From Gemmatimonadota bacterium (lineage in GTDB: Bacteria > Gemmatimonadota > Gemmatimonadetes > Longimicrobiales > RSA9), in the NCBI GenBank assembly GCA_040905425.1, contig JBBDRO010000025.1, forward strand, positions 1-37,021: a stretch of 37,021 nt of DNA, in the 5' to 3' direction. The notes beneath the pieces were generated by a model. The model was not told the DNA's origin and made no database searches. It saw nothing but the letters and a program-made list of their open reading frames with translations. Shown here in pieces: positions 16,204 through 32,376 of the stretch. The translations under genes and the position numbers were made by a program. Each line of letters begins with the position of its first letter. Position 1 is the first letter of the stretch.

Positions 16204-16210
16204 GGCCGCG

Positions 16211-17300: not shown

Positions 17301-17353
17301 CCGCGCCCGCCGGGCGTGATCCGCGCCGGCCGGGCGTGATCCGCGCCGGCCGG
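17301..17353. repeat. 20-bp tandem repeat (CCGCGCCSGCCGGGCGTGAT, about 2.6 copies) between convergent genes
   Basis: Copies at 17301-17320, 17321-17340, partial 17341-17353. Confidence 0.85.
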
Positions 17354-17355
17354 CT

Positions 17356-19098
17356 TCAACCGCCGCCCGGGATGGCGATGTGGCAGCGGCGGCAGGTCAG
17401 CTTGTTGCGATCGGCCATGCGCGTGGGGTCGAAATCGGGGCCGTGCGGGCTGATGCGCCAGCCGCCCGTGGCCGAATGGCACTGCTGGCAGTCCCGCTCG
17501 GCGTGGCAGGTGGCACAGCTCTCCAGACCCTGGCGGGCGGCCTGGGCGTGCTGCAGCAGCCAGAGCGGCAGGGCGTTGTGGAAGGCAACGTCCAGGCGGC
17601 CCTCCGATCCCAGCCCCACGCTCTCGTGGCAGCTCTTGCAGAAGGACTGGGTGTTGTGGCAGGTGCTGCATTCGGTCTGCCGGCTGTAGGCGTCCGTGGC
17701 GTGCCGCTGCACGAAATTGGGCGCGTGGAAGCCCGAACTTTCCGGCGCGTCGTGGCAGTCGCTGCAGAATGTGCTGGTGTGGCAGCTGGAGCAGCTCGGC
17801 TGATCGGCGGCCGCCGCGCCGCCGTGCGCCGTGGCAAAGCCCGGCGGGTGGAGCAGTGCCGCGCGCTGGCTCTCCCCCTGCTGCGGCGCCATGGGGCGCG
17901 CCAGCTCGGGGTGGCGTACGGTGGCGGCCCGCGGTGCCGCGTCCGGGGCGCCCGGCGTCGCGGTCACGCGCCAGCCGCTGATCTGCACACCCCCGGGGCC
18001 CGCGGGAAGCATGCGGATGAGTTCCCGGCCACCCTCGCCGATGTGACAGGCATTGCAGCTCGGTCGCGCGTGGCAGTTGGCGCACGTCTGGATGCGCGCG
18101 GTGGCGTCCTGGCGGTGGGAATAGAGCCAGCCCTGTTCCTCGTGGCTCTCGGGCAGCGGATACACGGCTACGCGCTCCAGGGAGGCGGCCAGCGCGCGCG
18201 GATCGCTGGCGAGCGCCGCGATGGCGGGGATATCCGCGGCGTTCAGATGGCAGCGCGAGCAGCTCTCCGCGGCGTGGCAGTTGGCGCACGTCTGGATGCG
18301 CGCGTTGGCGTCCTGGCCGTGGGCATAGAGCCAGCCCTGTTCCTCGTGGCTGTCCGGCAGGGGATAGACGGCCACGCGCTCCGAGAAGGCCACCAGCAGG
18401 CGCGGGTCGCTGCCGAGCGCCGCGATGGCGGGGACATCCGCCGCGTTCAGATGGCAGCGCGAGCAGCTCTCCACGGCATGGCAGACGGCGCACTGTTGGC
18501 GCGCGAACGCTTCACTGGGCGCGTGGTCGAAGGCGTAGTCCTCGGCCGCGTGTGAGGACGGTTCGGGGAAGGCGGCAATGTTCCAGGCGGCCAGCTCGTC
18601 CGCCTCCGCCAGCGGCATGTGGCATTGCCGGCAGTCCGCGTCCGCCGCCAGGTGCTCCGGCGCCTCGTGCGCGTGGCAATCCAGGCACCAGGCCGGTTCG
18701 GCGGCGGCCACGGCCATGAAGGCCGTGCTGCCATCCGCGGCGTGGCAGGTGTGGCAGGTGAGCGAGTCACCCCCCGCCCGGGCCGCGTCCCGGTGCGTGC
18801 CGTGGGTAAAACGCAGGTTGTCCGGATCGTCCTGAAAGCCGGACCAGGTCACCGTGGGCTGCACGGCGCCGTCGTGGCAGGCCGCGCACAGTTCCTGGTC
18901 CGGGAAACCCATGGACTCCTGCCCCGTGGGCAGCTCGCCGTGGCAGCCGGAGCAGGTGGGAAAGAGCGCGGCGTGCTGCGCGTGCGGGAAAGGCTGGCGT
19001 TCCTGCTGCGCAGCCGCCCACAGACCGGTGCCTCCCAGCCCCAGGAGCGCCACCACCGCCAGCGCCACCAGCCGGCCCGTGGTCACGGCGCCCCTCAC
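17356..19098 (-). CDS. Secreted 18-heme c-type cytochrome
   Basis: Signal peptide (WAAA|Q), 18 CxxCH by manual count; GTG start overlaps upstream TGA after GGAGGT; alternative start 19086. Confidence 0.93.
   Translation of the reverse strand: MRGAVTTGRLVALAVVALLGLGGTGLWAAAQQERQPFPHAQHAALFPTCSGCHGELPTGQESMGFPDQELCAACHDGAVQPTVTWSGFQDDPDNLRFTHGTHRDAARAGGDSLTCHTCHAADGSTAFMAVAAAEPAWCLDCHAHEAPEHLAADADCRQCHMPLAEADELAAWNIAAFPEPSSHAAEDYAFDHAPSEAFARQQCAVCHAVESCSRCHLNAADVPAIAALGSDPRLLVAFSERVAVYPLPDSHEEQGWLYAHGQDANARIQTCANCHAAESCSRCHLNAADIPAIAALASDPRALAASLERVAVYPLPESHEEQGWLYSHRQDATARIQTCANCHARPSCNACHIGEGGRELIRMLPAGPGGVQISGWRVTATPGAPDAAPRAATVRHPELARPMAPQQGESQRAALLHPPGFATAHGGAAAADQPSCSSCHTSTFCSDCHDAPESSGFHAPNFVQRHATDAYSRQTECSTCHNTQSFCKSCHESVGLGSEGRLDVAFHNALPLWLLQHAQAARQGLESCATCHAERDCQQCHSATGGWRISPHGPDFDPTRMADRNKLTCRRCHIAIPGGG
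18068..18484 (-). repeat. Intragenic 204-bp (68-aa) tandem duplication carrying two heme motifs per unit
   Basis: TGGCAG anchors at 18071, 18275 and 18479; 56/66 aa identical between units. Confidence 0.95.
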
Positions 19099-20558
19099 GA
19101 TCCACCTCCCCCGCCGCGCATCCCCGGATCCGCGCCCACGGCCCACTCCAGTTGCAGCGTGGCCCGCACCTGCGTCCAGTCCACCGTCCCCGGCGTGGGG
19201 CTCTCCAGGTGACGGTAGGCCGTGGCGCTGCCGCTCAGCCGCGTGTCCGCATTCAGCCGCCACGCGGCGTTGGCCCCGAGGCCGGCCACCACGCCTTCAC
19301 CGAGGGAGAATTCGCGAATGCTCTGGAAGAGCGCGCCGTGCGCGCCCACGTAGCCCGTCTCCCCCCAGTCGCGGCGCAGCGCGGCGTCCACCTCACTCTG
19401 CGCAGCGCCGAAGTTGATGTGGCGCCAGTAGGCGCCCGAGGCCATCCACGCCTCAGCGGGGCGCCACCATGCGTCCGCACCCACCCGCCAGCCGTTCGTG
19501 CGCAGCATGGCCGACGCCAGCCCGGCGTGCGCCTCGTCGTAGCTCCGCCAGGCACCCGTGAGGCGCACCCCCAGCTCATCGGCGCGCCCCCACGCCAGCG
19601 TGCCGCTCCCTTCACCGTAGCCCACGGGCGAGAACACCCCCCAGATGGTCCACAGCTCGAAGAAGGGGCGGTAGCGGCGTACCTCGGCCGCGGCGGAGAA
19701 ACCGTGCGCCAGCGGGACGTCGGCACGCAAGCGGGCCTCGTTCAGCCAGCCGGCGCCCAGGTCGGCCTGCAGTGCGCCACTCACGGCTCCGCGGCCGAAG
19801 GACACGCGGGCGTCCGCCGCCAGGCGCTCCGAGTAGAGGGCGCCTCGATCGGTGCGGATCTCCCGCTGGTAGAGCAGCGAGCCGGCCATGCCCGGTGCGG
19901 GACGCACGCGCGCCAGCGCACCCAGGATGTAGGCGCGCTCGGAGGGGAAGAATGGCTCCACGCCCTCCAGGGCGTCGTCGTGATACTCGTTGGTGCCGCG
20001 CATGAGACTCCACCCGCCGTAGGCCTCCACGGTGAGCTCGTCCATGGGCCGATAGGCCAGCGCCAGCCCATCGAAGTTGTACCAGCCGAGCGAGGAGGTC
20101 TGCCACTGGCGGCCGAGCCGTGCCCGGTAGCTGGGGCGGTCCACTTCCACGTAGGCGGAGAGGACGTCCAGGGGGTCATCGGCCTCGGGCCAGAGCGCGT
20201 CGGCCTGGCCCACCGCGGCGCGACCGCGGACATGAGCATAGGCGCGCACGCCCTGACCAAAGCCCCAGGCACTGGCACGCAGGTCCTGCATGAGCGGCAC
20301 GGTGGAGAGCCGCGGCCCCGCGCCCAGATAAAAGCACCAGGGTAGGCCCTCCGTACACCGCACCACCGAACCGTCCGGTGCCAGGCGGAGCGTGCCGGTC
20401 CCGAGCGCGTTCTCCATCGGGATGCTGTCCTTGACCGCCGTGGCCAGTTCGGCGTAGCGGGCCGTGCTGACGCCCGTGACACGCACGCCCTGGCCCGCTG
20501 CGGGCGCCACCGTCACGAGCGCCGCGATGGCCGCCACCGACCCGATCCTTGCACTCAT
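19095..20558 (-). CDS. Probable outer-membrane beta-barrel (porin) of a porin-cytochrome cluster, 487 aa
   Basis: Signal peptide (PAAG|Q); alternating strands AYVEVD, ARLGRQW, FDGLALAY, TVEAYGG, VRATLQLEW; no heme motifs; sits between two multiheme genes. Confidence 0.75.
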   Translation of the reverse strand: MSARIGSVAAIAALVTVAPAAGQGVRVTGVSTARYAELATAVKDSIPMENALGTGTLRLAPDGSVVRCTEGLPWCFYLGAGPRLSTVPLMQDLRASAWGFGQGVRAYAHVRGRAAVGQADALWPEADDPLDVLSAYVEVDRPSYRARLGRQWQTSSLGWYNFDGLALAYRPMDELTVEAYGGWSLMRGTNEYHDDALEGVEPFFPSERAYILGALARVRPAPGMAGSLLYQREIRTDRGALYSERLAADARVSFGRGAVSGALQADLGAGWLNEARLRADVPLAHGFSAAAEVRRYRPFFELWTIWGVFSPVGYGEGSGTLAWGRADELGVRLTGAWRSYDEAHAGLASAMLRTNGWRVGADAWWRPAEAWMASGAYWRHINFGAAQSEVDAALRRDWGETGYVGAHGALFQSIREFSLGEGVVAGLGANAAWRLNADTRLSGSATAYRHLESPTPGTVDWTQVRATLQLEWAVGADPGMRGGGGGS

Positions 20559-20560
20559 CC

Positions 20561-22279
20561 TCACCGGCTGCCTCCTCCCACAACGCCCTTCGACCAGTCG
20601 GTTGCGTGGCACACGGCGCAGGGCCGCTCCGGATAGTGGTCCCGCTGCGCCTCGTGACAGGTGAGGCAGACGGGCCTGGTGGGCGGCAGCGGCGCCACGA
20701 CGGCGTTCTCGTGGCAGCCCGCCCCGCCGCAGCCCAGGTGCACGGCGCGGTCGTGCACCGGGCCGGGCTCGGCGGACTGCGGCGTATGGCACGCCTGGCA
20801 CATGCTGCCGCCCACGAAGTCGTGATGGTCCTCGTGGCACGAGGCGCACGTCACGGCCGCGGCGAACGTACCCGGGGTGGTGTGGCAGGTGGTGCACGCC
20901 ACCTGCTCGTGCCAGCCGTGCGTGAACGGGAGCGCGCGGTTGCGGGGCGCGTCCCAGACGGACAGGTCGAGCAAAACGGATTCCTGGTACCTGCCGGCGA
21001 TCTCACTCGACGTGTGGCAGCGCTGACACCGGTCGCGCATGCGTGGCGCGTGGTGGCACGCCTGGCAGTCGGCGGCGGTGCGCACCACGAGCGCGCCGTG
21101 GGCCGTGGCGGTGCCATGGCAGGCGGTACACGCCACGCTGGCGTGACGGTCGTGCGAGAACGGCTCTCCACCCAGACGCGGCACCTGTTGGAGCAGGAAG
21201 CCCAGGCCGCGCAGCAGCGGGGCGGCCAGCGTGGCGGTGGGCAGCATGCCCATGCGCTCGATGCCCGCCGCCGGATGGAAGCTCTCCCCTCCCGCCGGTG
21301 GATGGGGCGCCGTGCCGCGCGGGCGGTTGGGCCGATCCAGCGTCGCCGGGTCGTGGCAGGCCACGCAGGTCACGCCCGGCGCGTTCCAGGTATGGGCGGC
21401 GTGGCAGTCGGTGCACTGTGCCAGCGCGCCGGGTTCCAGGCCTCGATGCCAGGGGCTCAGGGTTTCGGGCGTGCTATGACAGCCGGCCGAGGCGCACGAC
21501 TGCACGGCCTGCGCGGCGGTTTGCTGCTGATGCGGGTCGTGACACACGCCGCAGGACCCGCCGTGCGGTTCGTCCTCCGGGAAGTTGGCCAGCATGGCGC
21601 GCATCTGATGGCACGCCGTGCACTCGGGTCGGCGGGGCTGCAGCGCATTGGCCAGGCTGTCCGCCGGCGTCCCGGGCGCCACCGGCCGGTTGAAGTTGTG
21701 GCACGCCACGCAGTGGATGGTCATCTGCCCCATGGCGCCCAGACGCACCGTGGTATCCTCGTGGCAGCCGGCCTGGCCGCAGGTCTGACTGGTGGCGGTG
21801 AAAACGTGGATGGAGGCTGAGTGGCACTCCACGCAGCGGAGTCCCTCCAGCGACGGGTCGTCCGATTCCATGTGCACGCGGTGGCCGGCCGAGGCGGCAA
21901 TGAGCGTCCATTCCTCCGGATTGCCGTCGATATGGCACTCGGCGCAGCGCTCGTTGGGCACCTCCGCGTGCTCCTCGATGGTCTCGGGCTGCTCGATGAT
22001 CTGGCTGAGGGCCATGCGGCTGCGCGCCACGAACGTGGGCTGGTGGCAGGCCTTGCAGCCCAGGCCCCGGTGGGCACTCTGCTCGAAGCGGGAGAAGGGG
22101 TCCTGCATGAGGTGGCAGGACATGCAGAAGTCGTTGTCGTGCTGGACGTAGTCGTACGTGCGGTACATCAGGATGCCGGCCACCACGGCCCCCGCCACGA
22201 CCAGAGTCCCCAGGACGGCCATTACGCTTCTGGGCAGGTTGCGCAGCGTGCCGCCCATGCGGTCCAGCAGCGCCCTCAT
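20561..22279 (-). CDS. Membrane-anchored multiheme cytochrome c with N-terminal NapC/NirT-like domain (17 CxxCH + 3 CX4CH)
   Basis: N-terminal TM helix then NDFCMSCHLM (CxxCHxM) and SAHRGLGCKACH, typical of NapC/NrfH; 572 aa. Confidence 0.9.
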   Translation of the reverse strand: MRALLDRMGGTLRNLPRSVMAVLGTLVVAGAVVAGILMYRTYDYVQHDNDFCMSCHLMQDPFSRFEQSAHRGLGCKACHQPTFVARSRMALSQIIEQPETIEEHAEVPNERCAECHIDGNPEEWTLIAASAGHRVHMESDDPSLEGLRCVECHSASIHVFTATSQTCGQAGCHEDTTVRLGAMGQMTIHCVACHNFNRPVAPGTPADSLANALQPRRPECTACHQMRAMLANFPEDEPHGGSCGVCHDPHQQQTAAQAVQSCASAGCHSTPETLSPWHRGLEPGALAQCTDCHAAHTWNAPGVTCVACHDPATLDRPNRPRGTAPHPPAGGESFHPAAGIERMGMLPTATLAAPLLRGLGFLLQQVPRLGGEPFSHDRHASVACTACHGTATAHGALVVRTAADCQACHHAPRMRDRCQRCHTSSEIAGRYQESVLLDLSVWDAPRNRALPFTHGWHEQVACTTCHTTPGTFAAAVTCASCHEDHHDFVGGSMCQACHTPQSAEPGPVHDRAVHLGCGGAGCHENAVVAPLPPTRPVCLTCHEAQRDHYPERPCAVCHATDWSKGVVGGGSR

Positions 22280-22393
22280 TGCGCTCGCCCGCCCAGCCAG
22301 AGGCCCGGGGGTTCCCCGGGACCGGCCGTTTCCGTTCGTTGCATCCGGTATCGCCTCCCAGCCCCGGAAACCCGTCCCTTCGAATGACGCTTG

Positions 22394-22422
22394 AACGTAC
22401 ATCGCCGCGCGCCATGCGACAA
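22394..22422 (-). promoter_or_regulatory. Candidate sigma70 promoter for the leftward cytochrome-porin operon
   Basis: Minus strand TTGTCG, 17 nt, TACGTT in the divergent intergenic region. Confidence 0.3.
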
Positions 22423-22565
22423 TTCGATATGTTCCCCACAAGCCTTCAAGGAAATGCGGACAGACAACGCGGCGCCTACACCACTATCCTTGCGCACGTC
22501 GCGACGCGCCGCAGGGGTCGCGGTACGCGCGTAAAGCCGCTCACGAGGACCGAGGAGATACCGGT

Positions 22566-23018
22566 ATGATGATGCCCCGTAGCCTGCTCACCGCTCTGGC
22601 CGTGGTGGCCGCCGCCGGTCTCACCGCCTGTGGCTCGGAGCCCGAGGACGCCACGCCGATCGGTGGCGCGCCGGCGGATGCCAGCGCCCTTCCTGCGGCG
22701 GAAGTGCGTGCCGAACTCGACGCGGGGAACGCGGCGTACCGCAAGGACGATCACGAGACCGCGCTGGCCCACTACACGAAGGCCACCGAGATGGCGCCGG
22801 AGCTGGCGGCGGCGTGGTTCGGGGTGTCCATGGCCCAGGAGGCGCTGGGCAACGCGGAGGCCGCGCAGGAAGCCATGCAGAAGGCCATGGAGTTGGCGCC
22901 CGCCGACGAAGCCGGTGACCTGCAGAGCATGCCGCGGGACGCTGATCACGCGCCCGGCGGCGCCATGCCGCCCGCCACCATGCCGGACGACACCATCCAC
23001 GGCGGCACGGGCGGCTGA
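22566..23018 (+). CDS. TPR-repeat lipoprotein
   Basis: GAGGAG RBS, lipobox LTAC, two TPR-like units (GNAAYRKDDHETALAHYTKA; AWFGVSMAQEALGNAEAAQEAMQKA); Met/His-rich tail. Confidence 0.85.
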   Translation: MMMPRSLLTALAVVAAAGLTACGSEPEDATPIGGAPADASALPAAEVRAELDAGNAAYRKDDHETALAHYTKATEMAPELAAAWFGVSMAQEALGNAEAAQEAMQKAMELAPADEAGDLQSMPRDADHAPGGAMPPATMPDDTIHGGTGG

Positions 23019-23025
23019 GGTGCGC

Positions 23026-23478
23026 ATGCGCGCGCGCGCCATGGGCGTTCTGCTGAGCGGGCTCGCCGCCGCCGGCTGCGAGGAGCACGAGTTCCATCCG
23101 CCCGACCGTGCGGCACAGGTGGCCGTGGCCGATTCGCAGTACGCGCAGCTGCGCTTCGACACCATTGCGTGGGCCGCCGAGGACGCACGCATCGAAGTCG
23201 GCAATACCACGTTCGCCGCGCACTGCACGCGCTGTCACGGGCCGCTGGGCAGGGGCGGTACGGAGTACGTGGTCGAGCAGGACCTGGACGTGCCGTCGCT
23301 GGTGGAGCCCGGGTGGCCGTACGAGGGGGACACCGACGCGGTCCGTCGACGCGTCTGGGTGGGCCACCCCCAGGGCATGCCCACGTGGGGCGTGGCGCGC
23401 CTGACCCTGCGCGAGGTGGATGCCGTGGCGCACTACATCGTGGCGCAGTTGCGGCCGGAGGTGCTCGGCGGCGGCTGA
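23026..23478 (+). CDS. Monoheme class I cytochrome c lipoprotein
   Basis: Lipobox-like AAGC, one CTRCH, distal GMPTWG (Met ligand). Confidence 0.85.
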   Translation: MRARAMGVLLSGLAAAGCEEHEFHPPDRAAQVAVADSQYAQLRFDTIAWAAEDARIEVGNTTFAAHCTRCHGPLGRGGTEYVVEQDLDVPSLVEPGWPYEGDTDAVRRRVWVGHPQGMPTWGVARLTLREVDAVAHYIVAQLRPEVLGGG

Positions 23479-23594
23479 GCCACTCATTCATCGCGCACGA
23501 GGCGCCGTCCGGCTGGACCGGGCGGCGCCTCGTTACGTCTGTAAGCGACGCTGCAGCGCACCCTCCCGGCGCTCGCCAGCGGTGATCCGGGGGT

Positions 23595-23631
23595 GCGCGA
23601 AATCGCGCGCGGCATCGCGCGAAAACGCGCG
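23595..23631. promoter_or_regulatory. Tandem palindromic sites, candidate upstream activator sequences for a sigma54 activator
   Basis: GCGCGAAATCGCGCG (23595-23609) and GCGCGAAAACGCGCG (23617-23631), 14/15 identical, 22-bp period. Confidence 0.55.
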
Positions 23632-23676
23632 TTTCGGGCCACGAAGGACGCCGCGTCATCGTCGCTTGAATCCGTA

Positions 23677-23689
23677 TAAGTGGTTGTTA
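23677..23689 (-). promoter_or_regulatory. Candidate IHF binding site
   Basis: TAACAACCACTTA versus WATCAANNNNTTR, 8 of 9 defined positions, between candidate UAS and -24/-12. Confidence 0.5.
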
Positions 23690-23719
23690 TACATTGCTTT
23701 GGCTTCTTTCGAGCAGGCG

Positions 23720-23735
23720 TGGTCCCGCCCTTGTA
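23720..23735 (+). promoter_or_regulatory. Candidate sigma54 promoter with non-canonical -12 GT
   Basis: TGGTCCCGCCCTTGTA, GG-N10-GT with TTG, about 50 nt upstream of ATG 23787. Confidence 0.45.
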
Positions 23736-23786
23736 CTGGTAAGGGGCGAACGGACGCCAGATAGGCGCCGAGACCCGGAGGTAGAA

Positions 23787-24983
23787 ATGACAACCACGAC
23801 GATGACGAACGAGCGGCCCACCGGTGCTGAGTTGATGCGCGGGATTGGCCTTCCTGGACGGATAGCGGTGACCTGGGCGCTGGCGGGCGGACTGCTGCTG
23901 GGCGGCTTCCTGGTGGCGGGAATGACGCTGGCCGGGCGGCTCTCCGGCAGCGGCTTGCTGGTGACCAGCGCGGGCCTCTTCATCATCGGCGCGGCGCTGG
24001 GCTTCGGGCACGGGGCCGTGCTCGGCTTCCTGGGTCGGCCGGAGGGGGTCGGTCGCGCGGAGGCGCTGCGGATGCTGGGGCTGGCGGCCGTGTACGCTCT
24101 GCCCATGCTGGCGCTCGGCCTGCTCGTGGCCGGCTGGGTGAGCATGGCCACGGTGGCGCTCTACATCGGCCGCACGCTGCCCCTGGTAGGCGTGGTGCTG
24201 GCCGCGGCGGTCGGCGTCATAGGGCTGGTGAGCGCCGCGGCCTACGGCTGGCGTGGCGCCCAGCACGCCTATGCGCGCTGGCCGGACCGCAGCGTGGGGA
24301 CCGTGCTGGTGGCGGCTACCTATGCCGCGTTGCTGGTGCTCTTCCTGGCCGACCGCCCGGAGATCTGGGGGCTGCGGCTGCGGGTTACCGAGACGGGCGC
24401 CGTGCTGCTGGCCTCGGCGGTGACCTTCTGGCTGGTGGGTCCCGGGGTGACGCTGGCGCTCGGAGCGTTGCGCCGCCTGGCGCTGCCCATGCCCGCACTC
24501 GTGGTGAGTGACGGGCGCGGCCTGGCCGGCGGCCTGGCCGTGGGCATGGCGGCCGGTGGTGTGCTGGCGGTCCTGGCGCTGCCGTTCCACGGAGCTCCGT
24601 TCGGGGCGCATACGTTCGCCGCCGGCGCCGGCGCGGCGGGGACGCTCCTGCTGGGACTGGGCGCCGCACTGTTCAGCGAGGTACTGCTGCGCCTCGTGTT
24701 GGTGACGGCCGTGGCCGCCGTGGTGCTCCGGCGCATGGGCGCGGACCGGCTCGAGGCGGGGGCGGCCGGTGTGGTGGCCGCGGCGCTCGTGCAGGTGCTG
24801 CTCTACCTGCCGGCGGTCCTCGAGGTGGGGTTCGCCAGCTCGGTGGCGGCCGCGGGCTACGTGATCCTGGGAGTGATGGTACCCTCCCTGGTCTTCGGCT
24901 TCCTGTACTGGACGCGCGGTCTGGGCACCGCCGTGGTGGCGCACGCCACCGCGCTCGTGGTCCTGGCGCTGCTGGTGGCCTGA
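23787..24983 (+). CDS. Polytopic membrane protein with C-terminal degenerate CPBP/Abi (CAAX protease-like) domain, 398 aa
   Basis: GGAGGT RBS; many TM segments; FSEVLLR (motif 1 remnant), VFGFLYWTRGLGTAVVAHA (final motif). Confidence 0.7.
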   Translation: MTTTTMTNERPTGAELMRGIGLPGRIAVTWALAGGLLLGGFLVAGMTLAGRLSGSGLLVTSAGLFIIGAALGFGHGAVLGFLGRPEGVGRAEALRMLGLAAVYALPMLALGLLVAGWVSMATVALYIGRTLPLVGVVLAAAVGVIGLVSAAAYGWRGAQHAYARWPDRSVGTVLVAATYAALLVLFLADRPEIWGLRLRVTETGAVLLASAVTFWLVGPGVTLALGALRRLALPMPALVVSDGRGLAGGLAVGMAAGGVLAVLALPFHGAPFGAHTFAAGAGAAGTLLLGLGAALFSEVLLRLVLVTAVAAVVLRRMGADRLEAGAAGVVAAALVQVLLYLPAVLEVGFASSVAAAGYVILGVMVPSLVFGFLYWTRGLGTAVVAHATALVVLALLVA

Positions 24984-25239
24984 GCTGCCTTCGCGCGGTC
25001 CACCTGCTGTCGGATTCGTCTCACCACCGCCCCACCGGACTCCCGGTGGGGCGGACGCACGTAAGGGGGGCCGGGGCGGGCGCTTCCCTACGTGGCTGCG
25101 GTTTTTCCCACGCCAGATTCCGTCATCTCCCCACAGACGTTGGGGCGCCTCGCCCGGATATTGATGCTGTGCCGATCCAGGCGGGTGGACGCCCGCGGCA
25201 CTGGGCAGGGCGCCTGGCGCTCCGGGAGGAGGGACGCCG

Positions 25240-26730
25240 TTGGGGTGGACAATCAGGCTGCGGGATCTCCCGCTCCGAACCAAGCTGGCCATTACGGTGC
25301 TGGGCGTGGCCGTGGCCGTCCTCGGCGTCTTCACCCAGGTGTCCTTCCGCTACTGGAAGAGTGAGGCGCTGGCCGCCGCCGAGCAGCAGGCCCTGCTGGC
25401 GGGGCACTCGGCCCGCAGCCTGATCCAGACGGCGCTCCTGCAGGGCCGCTACGAGCAGGCCCACCGCAGCCTGCGCCGCCTGGTGGAGGACGCGCCCATC
25501 ACCCACGCGCGCGTGTGGACCGCCGATGGCACGATCCTGCTTTCCTCGCACGCCGAAGAGGAGGGCACGCGCCTGCCGGGAGTGTGGATTCCCCGCCGTG
25601 GGGACGTCCCTGCGGAGGGCAGCGTGCACGGCGGGGAGGATGGGGATGCCGTACGCGCCTTCTTCCCCGTGGACGGCGGCGCGGCGGCGCTCTTCGAAGT
25701 GGGCTTCTCGGTGGCCACAGTGCGCACCGCCATGGATCGTGGGGCACGCCTGGGACTGGGCCTCACCGCCGGCTCCCTGCTGGCCATCACGGTCATCCTC
25801 TTCACGCTGTTCGAGCGCGAAGTGGTGGCACCCATCGAGCGCATGCACGGGCTGCTCTCCGGGGTAGCCGTGAACGCGCCGGAACCGCTTCCCGAGCGGC
25901 CTCCCTCCCGGCGCACCAATGAGATGGGCCGCCTGGAGGCCTCGGTGGCGCACCTGGTGGAGCAGGAGCAGGCCGTGCGCCGGCTGGCACAGGAGCAGGG
26001 CCGCATGCTGCAGGAACAGCAGGGGCTGGCCGAGGTGGGGGAACTGGCCGCGGAAATGGCCCACGAATTCAAGCGGCCGCTGGCCTCCATCCGCTCCGCC
26101 CTGGAGGTGCTGGAGCAGGAGTACGTGCTGGAGGATCGGGCCCAGACGCTGCTCGGCGCTGTGGACGGCCAGCTCGAGAAGCTGAGTGAGACCATGCGCG
26201 ATCTGTTTGCCCTGGCCAAGCCGGTGGAGCTGGAGAGCCGGCCCGTGGACGTGGCTGACGTCCTGGATGACGCCCTCTCGCAGTTGGCCGTCCTGCCCGC
26301 GGCCTCGAACATCCAGGTCGAGCGCGTCTACGATCGCGGAGCGCCGCCCGTGGAGGGTGACCGGCGCCGCCTTGAGCAGGCGTTCGGCAATGTCCTGCTG
26401 AACGCGGTCGAGGCCATGGCGGAGGAGGGAGGCTCCCTCGTGCTGGGCACCACCCACACCAACGGCATGGTGGTGGTGGAGGTGACCGATACGGGCCCCG
26501 GCATACCCCCGGAAACGGTCGAGAAGACACTCCTGCCCTTCTACTCCACGAAGCCGTCCGGCACCGGCCTGGGGCTGCCTCTGGTGGCGCGCATCGTGGC
26601 CGCGCACGGTGGCACGCTGGCCATCGACGGGTCGCGCGGGCAGGGCACCCGCGTGCGCATCGGCCTGCCGGTGACCGCGGCGGTGCGCCATTCCAGCCAG
26701 GAGGGGGCATGGCCGACGCACGCATCCTGA
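25240..26730 (+). CDS. Two-TM sensor histidine kinase (NtrB/AtoS-like)
   Basis: H box MAHEFKRPL, N box NVLLNAVEA, G1 DTGPGI, F PFYSTK, G2 GTGLGL; GGAGGAGG RBS plus TTG. Confidence 0.93.
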   Translation: MGWTIRLRDLPLRTKLAITVLGVAVAVLGVFTQVSFRYWKSEALAAAEQQALLAGHSARSLIQTALLQGRYEQAHRSLRRLVEDAPITHARVWTADGTILLSSHAEEEGTRLPGVWIPRRGDVPAEGSVHGGEDGDAVRAFFPVDGGAAALFEVGFSVATVRTAMDRGARLGLGLTAGSLLAITVILFTLFEREVVAPIERMHGLLSGVAVNAPEPLPERPPSRRTNEMGRLEASVAHLVEQEQAVRRLAQEQGRMLQEQQGLAEVGELAAEMAHEFKRPLASIRSALEVLEQEYVLEDRAQTLLGAVDGQLEKLSETMRDLFALAKPVELESRPVDVADVLDDALSQLAVLPAASNIQVERVYDRGAPPVEGDRRRLEQAFGNVLLNAVEAMAEEGGSLVLGTTHTNGMVVVEVTDTGPGIPPETVEKTLLPFYSTKPSGTGLGLPLVARIVAAHGGTLAIDGSRGQGTRVRIGLPVTAAVRHSSQEGAWPTHAS

Positions 26731-28070
26731 TCCTCGAGGATGACGCCCTGCTGCATGCCATCCTGGTGGAGCGGCTGGAGCGGTCGGGCTATGAGGTTGC
26801 GGCCGCCACGACGCTGGCGGAGGCACGAGCGCTGGCGCGGGAGCACGGTCCCGACCTGGCCCTGCTGGACGTGAAGCTGCCCGATGGGGAGGGCACGGAG
26901 CTGCTCGAGGAACTGTCGGGGGAGGGAGACGTGGCGTGCGTCATGATGACGGCCCACGCCACGGTGGAGTCCGCGGTCGAGGCGCTCCGCCTGGGCGCCA
27001 TCGACTACCTGGAAAAGCCCTTCTCATTTGATCGGCTGGACGCCACGCTGGCCCGCACCATGGAGTTGACAGCGCTGCGTCGGGAGGTGCGGGAGCATCG
27101 AGAGCGCGGCGGACTGCCGGCCGGCTTCGTGGGCGAGAGTGACGCCATGCGGGAGGTGGTGCGGCTGGTGGAGCGGGTGGCGCCCGCCGGCAACACCACG
27201 GTTCTCGTGCAGGGTGAGACGGGCACCGGCAAGGGTGTGGTGGCGCGCCTGGTCCACGAGCTGAGCAAGCGGAGCGGTGGACCCTACCTGGCCGTGACGT
27301 GCTCCGCCCTGGCCGAGACGCTCATGGAATCCGAGCTCTTCGGGCACGAGAAGGGGGCGTTCACCGATGCCCGCACCATGAAGCGGGGCCTGGTGGAGCT
27401 GGCCGAAGCCGGCACGCTCTTCCTGGACGAAATCGGTGAGCTGTCCCTGCGCCTGCAGTCCAAGCTGCTGCAGTTCATCGAGGACCGCACTTTCCGCCGC
27501 GTGGGCGGCACACGGGACCTCTCGGTGGACGCGCGCATCGTGGCCGCCACCAACCGGGATCTGGAAGCGGAGGTACGCGCGGGCAATTTTCGCGAGGATC
27601 TCTTCTACCGGTTGAGCGCTTTTCCCGTTCGCATCCCTCCCCTGCGGGAGCGCAGGAGTGACGTGGCGCCGCTGGCGCGCCATTTCGTGGACACCTTCAA
27701 TCGGGAGTTCGGCAGGCAGATCCGCACCATCGCGCCGGAGACCATGGAGCTGCTGGAGCGGCACGGCTGGCCGGGCAACGTCCGCGAACTGCGCAACGTC
27801 ATCGAGCGCAGCGTGCTGCTCGCCGACGGGCCGGTGCTGGAAGCCGCCATGCTGCCGCCCGAGCTGCGCGGCCAGGACACCGGACGCTCCCTCCTGCCCG
27901 AACTCGAGCTGGGCCCGGAGGGTGTGGACCTGGAGCGGCTCGAGCGTCAGCTCGTGGAGGAGGCCCTGCGCCAGGCGGAAGGCAATCGGACGGAAGCGGG
28001 CCGGCTGCTGGGGTTGAGCCGCCACCAGGTGCGCAATCGCCTGAAGAAGCACGGGCTGGGGGACGAATGA
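26709..28070 (+). CDS. Sigma54-dependent response regulator (NtrC/AtoC family: REC-AAA+-Fis HTH)
   Basis: ILEDD, LLDVKLPD, GETGTGK, ESELFGHEKGAFTDA, LFLDEIG, WPGNVRELRN, C-terminal HTH. Confidence 0.96.
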   Translation: MADARILILEDDALLHAILVERLERSGYEVAAATTLAEARALAREHGPDLALLDVKLPDGEGTELLEELSGEGDVACVMMTAHATVESAVEALRLGAIDYLEKPFSFDRLDATLARTMELTALRREVREHRERGGLPAGFVGESDAMREVVRLVERVAPAGNTTVLVQGETGTGKGVVARLVHELSKRSGGPYLAVTCSALAETLMESELFGHEKGAFTDARTMKRGLVELAEAGTLFLDEIGELSLRLQSKLLQFIEDRTFRRVGGTRDLSVDARIVAATNRDLEAEVRAGNFREDLFYRLSAFPVRIPPLRERRSDVAPLARHFVDTFNREFGRQIRTIAPETMELLERHGWPGNVRELRNVIERSVLLADGPVLEAAMLPPELRGQDTGRSLLPELELGPEGVDLERLERQLVEEALRQAEGNRTEAGRLLGLSRHQVRNRLKKHGLGDE

Positions 28071-29269
28071 GGGGGCCTTGGCAGGATCGACGGCAGCGCG
28101 CGCTGCTGATGGCGTTGGGTCTGGCCCTGTCGGCAACGGCGGCCTTTGCCCAGGAGCCGGGCTGTGTGCGCTGCCACGGAGAGCTGGAGCTGCTGCGCCA
28201 GCACGTGCCGTCGCTGGCCGCGGCGCGGGCACTGCTCGTACGGAGTGACACGCTGGCGGCTTCCGCGCATGGCGCCATGACCTGTGCCGAGTGCCACACG
28301 GGCTATCAGCGCTTTCCACACCCTGAGGCGGGCACCAGCACGGCGGGCTGCGCTTCCTGCCACACCGCGGCGGACGCCGCGTGGCAGGAGGGCGTGCACG
28401 CCGGCGCCGCGGATGGCCAGGCGGTGGCGTGCGCCGCCTGCCATGGCATCCATGACGTGGCACCAGCGGCGGCGGTGGCGGCGGCCAGCACCGATCCGGC
28501 CCGCGACGTGGTGGTGGCGCGCTGCGTGGCGTGCCATTCCACCGACGACCTGCCGGAGGGAAATCCGCATCGCGGGCAGGTGGCCTGTACCGCCTGCCAT
28601 GCCCATCACGCCACGCGCCCGCCCATGGAGCCGAGCTCGCAACTGGCCCCCGCCGCCCAGGCCGCCACCTGCGGCGCGTGCCACGCGGAGCAGGCGTTGC
28701 TCTGGAGCGCGGACGTGCACGGCAGCGGCGTCCTGAGCGGCACACGCGCCCCGGGCGGGCGGCGCGGCGCGGCCTGCACCGACTGCCACGGCGCCCACGA
28801 CATGGCCGACCCCGGCGAGCGCGGTTATGCCGCCGCGACGGTGGATGAATGCGCGGCCTGCCACGAGCATGGCGCCCGCACGTACTACGATTCCTACCAC
28901 GGCAAGGCGGCCCGGCTGGGGTCCGCCGTGGCGGCCACATGCGCGCAGTGCCACGGCGCACACGGCATCCTGCCGGCCGCGGAGCCCGCCTCCACCGTGG
29001 CGGCAGCCAATCTGGTGGAGACGTGCGGTGCCTGCCACGCGCACGCCCGCCCGGCGTTCGTGCAGTATGACACTCATCCCGACCCCTTCAACCGGGATCG
29101 CAATCCCTACATCCATGGCGCGTTCTGGTTCATGAACAGCTTGCTCGTGTTCGTCCTGGTGGTGTTCGGCGCGCACACGCTGCTCTGGTGGATCCGCATC
29201 GAGCTCGACAAGCGCCGCGGCGTGGGGCACGGCGCTCACGACGGCCACGGCGGAGAGGCGGCGCCATGA
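28067..29269 (+). CDS. 11-heme cytochrome c with C-terminal TM anchor (CbcL c-domain-like)
   Basis: Signal peptide (AFA|Q), 11 CxxCH, YHGKA...CHGAHGILP...NLVETCGACH, C-terminal TM containing His; ATGA overlaps at both ends. Confidence 0.9.
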   Translation: MRGPWQDRRQRALLMALGLALSATAAFAQEPGCVRCHGELELLRQHVPSLAAARALLVRSDTLAASAHGAMTCAECHTGYQRFPHPEAGTSTAGCASCHTAADAAWQEGVHAGAADGQAVACAACHGIHDVAPAAAVAAASTDPARDVVVARCVACHSTDDLPEGNPHRGQVACTACHAHHATRPPMEPSSQLAPAAQAATCGACHAEQALLWSADVHGSGVLSGTRAPGGRRGAACTDCHGAHDMADPGERGYAAATVDECAACHEHGARTYYDSYHGKAARLGSAVAATCAQCHGAHGILPAAEPASTVAAANLVETCGACHAHARPAFVQYDTHPDPFNRDRNPYIHGAFWFMNSLLVFVLVVFGAHTLLWWIRIELDKRRGVGHGAHDGHGGEAAP

Positions 29270-30135
29270 GTGTTCCCCTGGATTCCGCGCAGCGCGGCAG
29301 CGGCCCCTATGTCTGGCGCTTCAACCTGTTCCACAGGTGGACGCACGGCTTTGCCATGCTGTCCTTCTACGTGCTCATCCTGACGGGGCTGCCACTGCGT
29401 TTCTCCTGCGCCCCGTTTTCGGCGCCGCTCGTCCGCTTCTGGGGTGGTGTGGAGCGGGCCGGGCTGATCCACCGCTGGGCGGCGGCCTTCATGGTGGCCT
29501 ACACGCTGATCCACATCGTCTACATGATCCGCAAGGTGTGGCGGGCGCAGGACCGCCGGAGGCTCCTGTGGGGCTCCGATTCCATGGTTCCGCATCCGCA
29601 GGACGCGCGCGACTTCATGCAGCAGTTCAAATGGTATTTCGGGAAGGGGTCGAAGCCCGCCTTCGGGCGTTACGGCTACCTGGAAAAGCTGGACTACTTT
29701 GGTGAAGTCTGGGGCTTCGTCATCATCGGAGGTACCGGGTTCGTGCTGTGGTTCCCCGAGTTCTTCGGGGCCTGGCTACCGGGTTGGATCTTCAACGTGG
29801 CCACGATCTTCCACGGTTACGAGGCGCTCATCGCCGCAGCCTTCCTCTTCACCATCCACTTCTTCAATGTCCATCTGCGCCCGGACAAATTTCCGCTGGA
29901 CGCGGTGATGTTCACTGGCCGCGGTACGCTGGAATACCTGAAGGAGGAGCACCCCGCCATGGCGGCGGAACTGGAGGCGGGGGCCGTGGGCCCCGAAAGC
30001 CGGCGCGCCGTCCACGACATGCGGGCGCCGGCGCCATCGAAGCGGCTCACCATGGTGGGCACCGTGCTGGGATTCGTGGCATGGGGTATCGGACTCGCAA
30101 CCATCGGGATGATCCTGTGGGCCGTCTTCTGCTGA
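29266..30135 (+). CDS. Di-heme cytochrome b subunit (FdnI/HydC-like, CbcL b-domain-like), 289 aa
   Basis: RFNLFHRWTH, LTGLP, IHRW, YLEKLDY, IFHGYEA, IHFFNVHLRP, EEHP. Confidence 0.88.
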   Translation: MSVPLDSAQRGSGPYVWRFNLFHRWTHGFAMLSFYVLILTGLPLRFSCAPFSAPLVRFWGGVERAGLIHRWAAAFMVAYTLIHIVYMIRKVWRAQDRRRLLWGSDSMVPHPQDARDFMQQFKWYFGKGSKPAFGRYGYLEKLDYFGEVWGFVIIGGTGFVLWFPEFFGAWLPGWIFNVATIFHGYEALIAAAFLFTIHFFNVHLRPDKFPLDAVMFTGRGTLEYLKEEHPAMAAELEAGAVGPESRRAVHDMRAPAPSKRLTMVGTVLGFVAWGIGLATIGMILWAVFC

Positions 30136-31514
30136 TCGGCGGGGCGCTGGCCCTGATGGCGTGTGGGGGAAGCGAGAGCGGGACCCCGCCCGCGACATCC
30201 GGGATTTTGGACGCGGAGGAAAGTGCGTACGGGGTGCCCCCCGGGGACGCCTTCGCCGCGGCCCACGCCGAACTGTCGTGCGCCGTGTGCCACCAGGGCG
30301 GGAGTGCCGACGCGGGGCGTTCCGCCGTGCCGCGGGAGGCCTGCACGAGCTGCCATGAGGACGTGGGACCGGCGGTGGTCTCCATCGGCACCGTGACGTT
30401 CGGCCACCGGGAGCACGGGGGGGATGACGTGCCACTCACCTGCGCCGGCTGCCACACCCACGAAAGCTGGCCTGCCCCGCTCACGGCCGGCGTGGACGCG
30501 TGCGCGCTGTGCCATGCCGGCCAGCTCACCGGGGAGGAGCCCGACGCCTGCCGCACGTGCCACACGCAGCCGCAGCACGTGACGCTCACGAGCCAGGGGC
30601 TGCCGGTGCCCCATAGCACGCTGCCATGGGTGGAGACCGGCTGTATCCGCTGCCACTATGACGTGGCCGAGCCCACGACCACGGTGTCCGCAGCGCGCTG
30701 CGCCGCCTGTCACGACGATGCCGGGACCGTGGCGGAGCGCAGCATCGGTGAGAACCTGCATCCCGTGCACGCGGGCGTCACCTGTACCGCCTGCCATGAG
30801 GCTGGCAGCCATCACGTGCGCGCGCTCAGCTCGGCGGTGGCGCTGGTGTGTACGGACTGCCACCAGCTCGCGCACGGGCAGGCGCTGGAGGGACCGCTGG
30901 CCGGGTCCACCACCTGCGCCGCGTGTCACGGCACCGTCCACCAGGCGCAGCAACGATTGCTCCTGGGGCTCTTCGACGGCGCCCAGGCCGCGCCCAGTGC
31001 CAAGTTCCTGGCGGGGATCACCTGCCGCTCCTGCCACGTGCCGGCGCCGGCGGATGGGCCGGAGGACGCCGTGCGGGGGCAGGCCACGACCTGCCAGGCG
31101 TGCCACACGGAGGAGTACGGACAGGTCCTGGATTGGTGGCTGAGCGGTATACGGGAGCGCACCCGCGTCGTGGACCGCTACGTGGCGGACGCGGGCCGTG
31201 TGCTGGCCGCCGGGGCGTCGGCGGAGGCCGTGCGGCACCTGGACGCCGCGCGCTCCATGGTGGGGCTGGTCCGCGAGGCTGGCGGTCAGCACAACCTGGA
31301 ACTGGCCGACCGGCTGCTGCGCAGCGCTCTGGAGCGGACCGCCGATGCCTACATGGCCAGCGGCCGGGCTCCGCCGTCTCCGCCGGCGCTCGGCACCAGG
31401 CCCCATGCCGGGCTGTGCACGTACTGCCATTACGGGCCGGACGAACCCTGGGACTATTCGCGCATGCCGGCCGATTTCCACGAACGGGTGCTCGGCGGCG
31501 GGGAGGGGGGGTGA
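30117..31514 (+). CDS. 13-heme c-type cytochrome lipoprotein
   Basis: Lipobox LMAC, 13 CxxCH, helical segment with GQHN between hemes 12 and 13; start uncertain (30117 GTG or 30081 ATG). Confidence 0.88.
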   Translation: MGRLLLIGGALALMACGGSESGTPPATSGILDAEESAYGVPPGDAFAAAHAELSCAVCHQGGSADAGRSAVPREACTSCHEDVGPAVVSIGTVTFGHREHGGDDVPLTCAGCHTHESWPAPLTAGVDACALCHAGQLTGEEPDACRTCHTQPQHVTLTSQGLPVPHSTLPWVETGCIRCHYDVAEPTTTVSAARCAACHDDAGTVAERSIGENLHPVHAGVTCTACHEAGSHHVRALSSAVALVCTDCHQLAHGQALEGPLAGSTTCAACHGTVHQAQQRLLLGLFDGAQAAPSAKFLAGITCRSCHVPAPADGPEDAVRGQATTCQACHTEEYGQVLDWWLSGIRERTRVVDRYVADAGRVLAAGASAEAVRHLDAARSMVGLVREAGGQHNLELADRLLRSALERTADAYMASGRAPPSPPALGTRPHAGLCTYCHYGPDEPWDYSRMPADFHERVLGGGEGG

Positions 31515-31516
31515 CC

Positions 31517-31780
31517 ATGAAACAGCATGCCGACGAAATTCAGCAGTGGGCGCCGCGGCGGGCCACCGCGCCTCCAGCCGCGGCGCCTGAGGGCCAGGCC
31601 CGGCCGCTACTGGAACGGGCGGCCGAGGAGGGGTGGGCCATGCGCGACCTCGAGCGGGCCTACATCCTCCATCTCCTTGCCCGCCACGGCGGGCATCGGG
31701 GCCGGACGGCGGAGGCGCTCGGCATCGATCGCCGGACGCTCTACCGGAAGCTCAAGGAGTACGAGTCGGACGACGGTTGA
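31517..31780 (+). CDS. Stand-alone Fis-type helix-turn-helix protein, 87 aa
   Basis: LERAYILHLLARHGGHRGRTAEALGIDRRTLYRKLKEY; GGAGG RBS; 2 nt after upstream stop. Confidence 0.85.
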   Translation: MKQHADEIQQWAPRRATAPPAAAPEGQARPLLERAAEEGWAMRDLERAYILHLLARHGGHRGRTAEALGIDRRTLYRKLKEYESDDG

Positions 31781-32176: not shown

Positions 32177-32376
32177 CACGGCCTCCATGGGCCATCCGTC
32201 GGCCCCATCCGGATTCGTGCTATGCCCGCACCGCGGCGGGCAGCGGTCCATTCCCAACGCTGGCGATCGTGGCTGCGGCGGGCTATTCTAAGGCCCTCAG
32301 CCTACAACCCCAGAGCCATTCCCGATACCGGGGTCGCCCGCTGGTGACCACCGAGCGCCGTGAACAGGAGCCTTCC

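Follow-up and report, generated by a model that had tools for sequence, protein, structure and literature searches.

A locus on a 37-kb contig of a Gemmatimonadota genome raises the question of whether a member of this phylum could pass electrons between its quinone pool and the outside of its outer membrane. The window, by which the whole stretch of DNA that was analysed is meant, is the contig JBBDRO010000025.1 (37,021 nucleotides, here C25), one of 115 contigs of a 4.12-Mb assembly with about 72% G+C and a genome completeness of 96.7%. Positions 17356-31780 of the window form two divergent operons, one on the minus strand (c20, barrel, c18) and one of nine genes on the plus strand, which together encode five c-type cytochromes and a predicted outer-membrane beta-barrel (Table 1). 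The original prediction, made from the DNA letters, described this region as a single, self-regulated conduit from quinones to the cell surface. The answer proposed here, held tentatively and with confidence just short of even, is that the locus is a lineage-specific porin-cytochrome-type conduit that connects the quinone pool with the space outside the outer membrane. What is new, on our best reading, is a lineage-specific system of the porin-cytochrome type that combines a new family of barrels with a 20-haem protein of fused NapC type; it is widespread in a phylum that is abundant and has few cultured members.

Gene models were picked by the G+C content of third codon positions (GC3) together with haem motifs. 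The five cytochrome genes hold 60 CxxCH and 3 CX4CH motifs, with 18 in c18, 17+3 in c20, 1 in c1, 11 in c11, and 13 in c13, and the counts predicted for them were exact. Across the whole assembly, 15 open frames carry at least three CxxCH motifs (142 motifs), 4 of which lie in the window (59 motifs), and all of these multihaem frames show a GC3 bias typical of real genes. This bias and the clustering of 4 of the 15 frames in one place argue that the motifs did not arise by chance. The one-haem gene is likewise real and has its one motif; the frame first drawn for it was too long, and the true start lies at 23026. All genes named at the outset stand, and three had been missed, namely a tetratricopeptide-repeat (TPR) lipoprotein, a 12-helix membrane protein (here 'memb'), and a protein with a Fis-type helix-turn-helix (HTH). 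The c20 and barrel genes are separated by 2 nucleotides, the barrel and c18 genes overlap by GTGA (the c18 start is GTG), and the pairs regulator/c11 and c11/cytochrome b each overlap by ATGA.

The gene between c20 and c18 had been described as beta-barrel-like, and its AlphaFold2 model, built from 35 homologues, is all-beta with 22 long strands and no plug (predicted local distance difference test, pLDDT, 81.6; predicted template modelling score, pTM, 0.73). Foldseek matches of this model were outer-membrane barrels only. The best matches in a full structural scan were barrels of TonB-dependent transporters (5t3r_D with Z 18.6, root-mean-square deviation 4.5, and 370 aligned residues; FyuA, Cir, and BtuB), which superimposed with Z of 17-18.6 over about 365 residues at 4.5-5 Å, followed by usher pores. 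Among the fold matches listed, which comprised TonB-dependent transporters, usher pores, and porins, there was no MtrB. Barrels of TonB-dependent transporters have 22 strands and a plug, and usher pores have 24 strands through which a pilus subunit passes. The barrel protein has neither a plug nor a TonB-box domain, and since transporter barrels of like size hold a plug, a lumen of this size can take a protein. Searches of the protein against Pfam (E <= 0.01) and NCBIfam returned no family, MtrB_PioB included, and a sequence search of the PDB gave no match at E below 0.5. Judged by these comparisons, the gene founds an unannotated family of predicted outer-membrane barrels.

The cytochrome encoded behind the barrel, c18, has a Sec-type signal without a lipobox and two haem domains (12 and 6 haems) joined by a variable linker. 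It was assigned to PF14522 and, just over the cut-off, to PF22113, while a PDB search with its sequence gave nothing usable. The c18 family shares 16 invariant CxxCH motifs, 10 in an N-terminal and 6 in a C-terminal part. The window copy reaches 18 haems rather than 16 through an internal duplication of one two-haem unit (residues ~255-322; within 18000-18500), which was missing from each of the 35 other aligned homologues.

The cytochrome on the other side of the barrel, c20, combines a transmembrane helix at residues 19-37 with a first haem motif, CMSCHLM, at residue 52, and 16 motifs follow beyond this head; a longer open frame of the gene reaches 22441. A first motif of the form CxxCHxM is a mark of the NapC/NirT family. 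The protein scored 19.0 bits against PF03264 (NapC/NirT; cut-off 24.1) and 33.2 bits against the NrfH model TIGR03153 (E 4.6e-8; cut-off 134.2), and residues 13-82 matched the NrfH structure 2j7a_C with E 0.0016. The transmembrane helix and the CxxCHxM first motif occur in 30 of 33 homologues, and 20 motifs were counted in 32 of the 33, the odd one being cut by a contig end. Among the 120 homologues listed, most carry a precomputed PF03264 assignment, and some are named NapC/NirT. Taken by its sequence, c20 is probably an inner-membrane cytochrome in which a NapC/NirT-like quinol dehydrogenase head is fused to a 16-haem extension.

A second set of redox proteins is encoded on the plus strand. 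Against the DmsE/MtrA model (TIGR03508, cut-off 192.2 bits), c11 scored 67.6 bits and c13 33.6 bits, while c18 and c20 did not match it; this agrees with the expectation that the cytochromes are not MtrA decahaems, and by sequence the barrel too lies outside the MtrB/PioB family. Weak matches of c11 were to octahaem nitrite reductase, OcwA, and NrfB. The cytochrome b that had been proposed is present, with 37.8 bits against PF01292 (cut-off 30.1) and a weak match to the formate dehydrogenase gamma subunit; a PDB sequence search with it gave nothing usable. Its residues His27, 69, 83, 183, and 198, located in transmembrane helices, are invariant in 9 sequences. In relatives, the b domain is fused behind a multihaem domain (L073, L079, and L010) or encoded separately (the window, L008, L017, and L057). 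Judging by this architecture, c11 and the cytochrome b probably form a split CbcL-like quinone module. In L073 (12429-17363) and L079 (6258-11155), the barrel is directly followed by what amounts to tandem CbcL-like proteins, as each of two successive genes there fuses a HydC-type cytochrome b domain with a multihaem domain, one of 11 and one of 19 motifs.

Residues 205-438 of c13 align with residues 279-513 of OcwA (PDB 6i5b_A) with E 2.7e-12, haem motifs and helical tail included, and by this alignment the C-terminal half of c13 is homologous to OcwA. Lipoprotein cytochromes had been expected in the locus, and both c1 and c13 carry lipoboxes. Taken together, the module types named in the original prediction were recovered as a NapC/NirT-type head on c20, a CbcL-like pair of c11 and cytochrome b, and a barrel gene between two large cytochrome genes. 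Overall, the original interpretation is largely reasonable as a prediction. The c1 gene is kept in locus L008, where the TPR lipoprotein gene also adjoins it. No family was found for 'memb' in Pfam or NCBIfam. The core of the protein is conserved in an alignment of 8 sequences, including a copy on contig C113 of the same genome, where it contains an invariant GxxHG...GR motif as well as a WP pair. The gene recurs beside cytochrome-barrel loci and their kinases. At the C-terminus, the copies in the window, L008, and L010 are longer by a membrane region of about 170 residues. The last gene of the operon gave no Pfam match in the overlapping frame 31527-31780, the frame from 31517 itself not having been scanned; its C-terminus resembles, in our reading of the translation, the Fis HTH of the response regulator.

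The barrel family was found in 184 of 401 sampled Gemmatimonadota genomes and in 83 of 148 genera, and its distribution across families is uneven. At least 374 homologues occur in a collection of 5.8 billion proteins, where every one with a taxon name belongs to Gemmatimonadota. A profile of the barrel collected 527 clusters among 1.84 billion representatives, and a pattern scan of species genomes gave 412 stretches encoding it. The phylum had been guessed correctly from the sequence, as 78 of 80 public loci are labelled Gemmatimonadota (the other two 'uncultured bacterium'), in line with the named homologues.

Neighbours of the barrel gene were counted within 9 kb in the 80 public loci; these counts are lower bounds, as many loci end at contig edges. 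The most frequent neighbours were c18-type, 8-haem, and c20-type cytochromes, which occurred in 67, 59, and 35 loci, respectively. They were followed by ccmF (21), [NiFe] hydrogenase subunits (19), PetB-type cytochrome b (18), and a Rieske protein (16), while 'memb' occurred in 7 loci, c11 and a HydC-type cytochrome b in 6 each, the kinase and sigma54 regulator in 5, and c13 in 2. A Pfam scan of 82 neighbour genes from 12 loci confirmed the neighbour identities. A known terminal reductase was considered as a regular neighbour and rejected, being present in one of these 12 loci (L064, with NapD and a NapA-like molybdopterin enzyme); the remaining scanned loci hold hydrogenase, Rieske/cytochrome b, Ccm, or regulators. 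The consistent partnering with a known terminal reductase that was checked for is thus not seen. In L016, L037, L044, L047, L050, and others, the barrel-cytochrome module has as its direct neighbour an operon for a [NiFe] uptake hydrogenase resembling group 1, which comprises genes for both the small and the large subunit, a cytochrome b, and maturation.

The genome itself carries a second, paralogous locus on contig C113 (locus L081, 1-14871), with the gene order 'memb', 8-haem, 9-haem, barrel, 16-haem, 9-haem, Rieske protein, and PetB-type cytochrome b. Genes for a kinase of the dCache-HAMP type and for a sigma54 regulator run divergent to this row. The two upstream cytochrome frames of C113 overlap and could be one frameshifted gene. 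In a quick tree of 82 barrels, the window and C113 copies stand far apart. The C113 copy falls in a well-supported Rieske-linked clade and the window copy on a deep branch near L001 and L009/L010, while the arrangement of the window is common to L008 (gene for gene) and L010. The system, first described in the singular, is instead one form of a family that is spread through the phylum, and the genome itself holds a paralogue. Elsewhere in the assembly, C61 (7121-9178) carries a pair of 4-haem and 5-haem genes that are NrfH/NrfA-like by size alone, and C103 (69189-78843) carries 10-, 8-, and 5-haem frames.

The closest known architectures are MtrCAB of Shewanella and MtoAB-MtoD-CymA of Sideroxydans. 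Like them, the locus has a large outer-membrane barrel gene directly among or next to genes of multihaem cytochromes and encodes a quinol dehydrogenase of the NapC/NirT type. The presumed logic, from the quinone pool out to the surface of the cell, is also shared, and a class I monohaem cytochrome c is common to the locus and Mto. In contrast to these systems, the barrel is outside MtrB_PioB with 22 modelled strands, the cytochromes have 18 and 20 haems and are under the DmsE/MtrA cut-off, and the quinol dehydrogenase head carries a 16-haem extension. The barrel operon encodes no surface lipoprotein cytochrome of the MtrC/OmcB type; c1 and c13 belong to the divergent operon. The arrangement agrees with the generic porin-cytochrome architecture in that the barrel gene adjoins a secreted multihaem c18-type gene in 67 of the 80 loci. 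With the NrfH/CymA/NapC proteins, c20 shares the N-terminal helix followed by CxxCHxM and weak but specific matches to the NrfH model and structure, while it differs in having 20 motifs, not 4 or 5, and in scoring under the Pfam and NCBIfam cut-offs.

The Pcc complex of Geobacter (OmbB-OmaB-OmcB) and the candidate classes PCC3 and PCC4/Ptd, as described in PMC5566968, are unrelated families with a common plan, a porin plus a periplasmic multihaem cytochrome, to which an outer cytochrome and an inner-membrane redox protein may be added. Very high haem numbers are also known from the cytochromes of PCC3, which differs from the locus by porins of up to 42 strands and a conserved five-helix inner-membrane protein of about 300 residues; PCC4 differs by 4-, 5-, and 10-haem cytochromes with Fe-S proteins and flavoproteins (PMC5566968). 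The gene sets of PCC3 and PCC4 are not found in the window, and by these published descriptions the locus is set apart from these two candidate classes. CbcL, MtoC, and MtrH resemble c11 and its neighbour in joining a periplasmic multihaem domain to a HydC/FdnI-like dihaem cytochrome b; CbcL is given 9 haems and six helices, compared to 11 haems and one helix in c11 (PMC6295460). Unlike CbcL, the module is split here into two overlapping genes, while it is fused in relatives of the same phylum, and the likeness to Geobacter CbcL is one of architecture. OcwA is described as a nonahaem cell-surface terminal reductase of Thermincola potens that is similar to reductases of soluble acceptors (6I5B, PMC6703420). 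Both OcwA and c13 are candidates for the last step to an acceptor, although OcwA has 9 haems and a Gram-positive host and c13 has 13 motifs and is a lipoprotein of a diderm. The clusters DFE_0448-0451 and DFE_0461-0465 of Desulfovibrio ferrophilus are also large multihaem clusters proposed to span the outer membrane, with NHL-repeat beta-propellers instead of a beta-barrel (PMC5815863).

The full-text literature search returned no paper defining, describing, or testing the barrel-cytochrome family. For Gemmatimonadota, the accessible text of the sources reports one CbcL-type and two ImcH homologues (PMC6295460), MtrCAB that is rare and horizontally acquired (PMC8805035, PMC11316326), and FeGenie labels (Cyc2, DFE genes) on metagenome-assembled genomes (PMC11316326, PMC13055281). 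Besides the rare MtrCAB and Cyc2, the iron-related annotation found in that text for the phylum was of the FeGenie DFE type only. A metagenome survey of 2026 drew porin-cytochrome clusters with petB/petC in the metagenome-assembled genome SAW209, which its supplement places in Gemmatimonadales, family GWC2-71-9; these clusters are probably, though unconfirmed, the Rieske-linked form of the barrel family. The combination of quinol dehydrogenases with a porin-cytochrome unit in one cluster is not new, as Rhodoferax has cymA, mtrH, and mtrABC in one cluster according to PMC6295460, and the statement that such modules generally come from separate loci was too strong.

For protein contacts, locations, and the course of electrons, we infer the following arrangement. 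One helix would anchor c20 in the inner membrane, where the four-haem NapC/NirT-like head would exchange electrons with (mena)quinol, and the 16 further haems would span the periplasm. Translationally coupled to the barrel, c18 would take over the electrons; it would sit inside the plugless 22-strand barrel or pass through it, which would bring haems to the cell surface. In a second branch, c11 and the dihaem cytochrome b would act as a split CbcL-like quinol:cytochrome module feeding the OcwA-like c13, and the monohaem c1 could connect to oxidases. The partner at the quinone pool would vary around the core, from the NapC-like head to CbcL-like modules and complexes of Rieske protein and cytochrome b. 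With outward flow, an aerobic heterotroph short of oxygen would reduce Fe(III) or Mn(IV) minerals, humics, or other external acceptors. A more specific version, in which c20 passes electrons directly and without a soluble shuttle to the 16-18-haem protein in the new barrel, with interchangeable quinone modules and often beside an uptake hydrogenase, is doubtful.

Several observations weigh against a conduit across the outer membrane. Both cytochromes encoded next to the barrel differ from MtrC and OmcB in not being lipoproteins. The barrel of MtrB has 26 strands, and the 22 strands of the model are fewer. The structure model of c18 (mean pLDDT 59.7, pTM 0.43) is too poor for fold comparison, and c18 and c20 each hold a long haem-free linker between two haem domains, so that a continuous haem wire needs domain-domain packing. 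Many complete genomes from the same order gave no match to the barrel, for instance those of genus g9 (0/11) and genus g10 (0/24), and the second operon could be purely periplasmic. In a fairly unlikely explanation, nothing is extracellular. The cytochromes would then make up periplasmic respiratory chains in which quinol donates to a soluble acceptor and c13 serves as a reductase like OcwA or NrfA. The barrel would be either a channel through which a soluble substrate of large size, such as a metal chelate or a compound of humic or polysulfide-like nature, enters or leaves, or an unrelated co-transcribed outer-membrane protein. The weak matches of c11 to octahaem nitrite reductase and NrfB, the missing lipoboxes of c18 and c20, the predicted nature of the barrel-cytochrome contact, and the solute transporters and porins among the closest folds of the barrel all suit it. 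However, c18 adjoins the barrel in most loci and is translationally coupled to it here, the barrel has no plug or TonB-box domain and no porin-family match, and 16-20 haems per protein are, in our judgement, far above the need of a periplasmic relay. The presence of c13 in just 2 of the 80 loci also makes the conserved core independent of it, and the single reductase gene in the 12 scanned loci argues in the same direction. Very improbable is an electron store, in which the 63 haems would mainly serve as a periplasmic capacitor for oxic-anoxic swings with no dedicated external partner. It would fit the concentration of 59 of the 142 genomic CxxCH motifs of multihaem frames in one locus, and capacitor-like roles are speculated for giant cytochromes in PMC11495043; it leaves the barrel between cytochrome genes and the two quinone modules unexplained, and storage and conduction are compatible.

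If electrons do cross the outer membrane, their direction has to be weighed separately. The Mto iron-oxidation cluster has a class I monohaem cytochrome c together with a NapC-type protein and a barrel, and c1 beside the NapC-type c20 and the barrel recalls it by analogy. Together with the Rieske/cytochrome b neighbours, which fit uphill as well as downhill electron flow, c1 speaks against a settled outward direction and would suit inward flow (metal oxidation) as well. In the same conduit run in reverse, an unlikely reading, the electrons would come from outside (Fe(II), Mn(II), humics in reduced form, a partner cell, or a cathode), pass downhill via c1 to haem-copper oxidases, and reach the quinone pool uphill via the NapC-like or CbcL-like modules or through Rieske/cytochrome b. 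The class I lipoprotein c1 encoded in the locus, the four haem-copper oxidase genes of the genome, the Rieske/cytochrome b genes that follow the barrel-cytochrome unit in C113 and lie near the barrel in 16-18 of the 80 loci, and the likeness to mtoA-mtoB-mtoD-cymA are in its favour, as is the occurrence of CymA and CbcL/MtoC families in both iron reducers and iron oxidisers (PMC6295460). Neither a RuBisCO large subunit nor a [NiFe] hydrogenase large subunit was found in the assembly, which at 96.7% completeness is not proof of absence; lithoautotrophy was rejected for this genome on these grounds, and Calvin-cycle growth on iron is unlikely. Outward flow through the proposed conduit is favoured since the organism, with its four oxidases and no RuBisCO found, looks like an aerobic heterotroph that would need another sink for electrons, since c13 is related to the reductase OcwA, and since hydrogenase, an electron-donor enzyme, often neighbours the module in relatives, where the 19 of 80 loci with an uptake hydrogenase better fit a pairing of donor and sink.

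The kinase and sigma54 activator that had been named are both present. Transmembrane segments 16-34 and 173-191 of the histidine kinase (HisKA, HATPase_c) enclose a periplasmic loop of about 140 residues, and the response regulator consists of a receiver, a sigma54-interaction AAA+ domain, and a Fis HTH (PF00072, PF00158, and PF02954). The genome encodes rpoN (Sigma54_DBD, contig C108). Kinase, regulator, and 'memb' would be co-transcribed with the second branch and presumably switch the system. Against such a switch, neither 22280-22566 nor the remaining intergenic regions gave a good match to a -24/-12 sigma54 promoter (TGGCAC-N5-TTGC). When up to 2 mismatches were allowed, the consensus occurred 29 times in the window compared to 46 expected by chance from a shuffled control, and a weighted scan of the window gave nothing convincing at either operon. 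Across 82 sequences (the window, C113, and the 80 public loci), the stretches upstream of cytochrome operons shared no consistent sigma54 site. A scan for sigma70 promoters and terminators that included 22280-22565 yielded 0 promoters and 2 sites resembling terminators, which does not exceed chance expectation. The kinase and sigma54 regulator adjoin both paralogous loci of the genome and were also seen in L008, L010, L056, L076, and L077. As no sigma54 promoter was found, control by the adjacent kinase and activator would rest on this linkage, which recurs at both paralogues, and the term 'self-regulated' went further than linkage carries.

The genes flanking the two operons encode M14 peptidases, a patatin-like lipase, a MATCAP-like protein, an ATP-grasp enzyme, and a phosphatase, and a Pfam scan found no respiratory enzymes among them. 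Two of the flanking genes (6680-10975 and 32269-35088) encode very large secreted proteins of 1431 and 939 residues with M14 carboxypeptidase domains. A putative carboxypeptidase gene of the MATCAP/DUF1704 type is followed by a glutathione-synthetase/RimK-like ATP-grasp gene (14341-17257); the pair resembles a peptide-tail ligase/trimming pair and is unrelated to the cytochromes. Where the ATP-grasp gene and c18 converge, the gap between them holds two exact tandem copies of a 20-bp G+C-rich, partly palindromic unit (17311-17350), which may form a terminator-like structure.

Table 1. Features of the two divergent operons at 17356-31780 of the window, with the evidence for each assignment.
Feature	Position	Strand	Evidence
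c18, secreted cytochrome, 580 aa (amino acids), 18 CxxCH	17356-19098	-	Motif count, N-terminus, PF14522
Predicted outer-membrane beta-barrel, 487 aa, signal peptide	19095-20558	-	AlphaFold2 model, fold matches
c20, probable inner-membrane cytochrome, 572 aa, NapC/NirT/NrfH-like head	20561-22279	-	Motif count, transmembrane helix, weak family matches
Divergent intergenic region, presumed promoters of the two operons	22280-22565	.	Lies between c20 and TPR lipoprotein genes
TPR lipoprotein, 150 aa, leads plus-strand operon	22566-23018	+	Lipobox LTAC; TPR_8, TPR_2, TPR_16
c1, monohaem class I cytochrome c lipoprotein, 150 aa	23026-23478	+	AAGC lipobox; PF13442 (E 2.7e-9); PF00034
'memb', polytopic membrane protein, 12 hydrophobic segments	23787-24983	+	Transmembrane segments
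Sensor histidine kinase, two transmembrane helices	25240-26730	+	HisKA, HATPase_c
NtrC-type sigma54 response regulator	26709-28070	+	PF00072, PF00158 (E 1.9e-64), PF02954
c11, predicted periplasmic 11-haem cytochrome, signal peptide, one C-terminal transmembrane helix	28067-29269	+	PF14522, PF22113
Dihaem cytochrome b, HydC/FdnI (cytochrome b561) type	29266-30135	+	PF01292
c13, 13-haem lipoprotein	30081-31514	+	Lipobox LMAC; OcwA alignment
Small protein, 87 aa, Fis-type HTH-like C-terminus, ends plus-strand operon	31517-31780	+	Translation, reading of sequence

Gemmatimonadota are common in soils and sediments, while their anaerobic and metal physiology is almost unknown and the known cultured strains are aerobes. 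The lack of a barrel match in the complete genomes of two genera of the same order would help to explain why the family has gone unstudied. The conduit and its consequences remain a prediction, and one survey, in its accessible part, had already drawn such clusters as generic porin-cytochrome clusters. If the prediction is true, Gemmatimonadota heterotrophs would join the redox cycling of iron, manganese, and humics, and the locus would add a further independent case of a porin-cytochrome system with an unusual fused quinol-dehydrogenase wire. The barrel family, for which Pfam and NCBIfam have no model, would then serve as a new marker in surveys of extracellular electron transfer. Should the direct transfer from c20 to the cytochrome in the barrel also hold, nearly half of the species of the phylum would be electroactive and would have escaped detection by the Mtr, Pcc, and Cyc2 markers.

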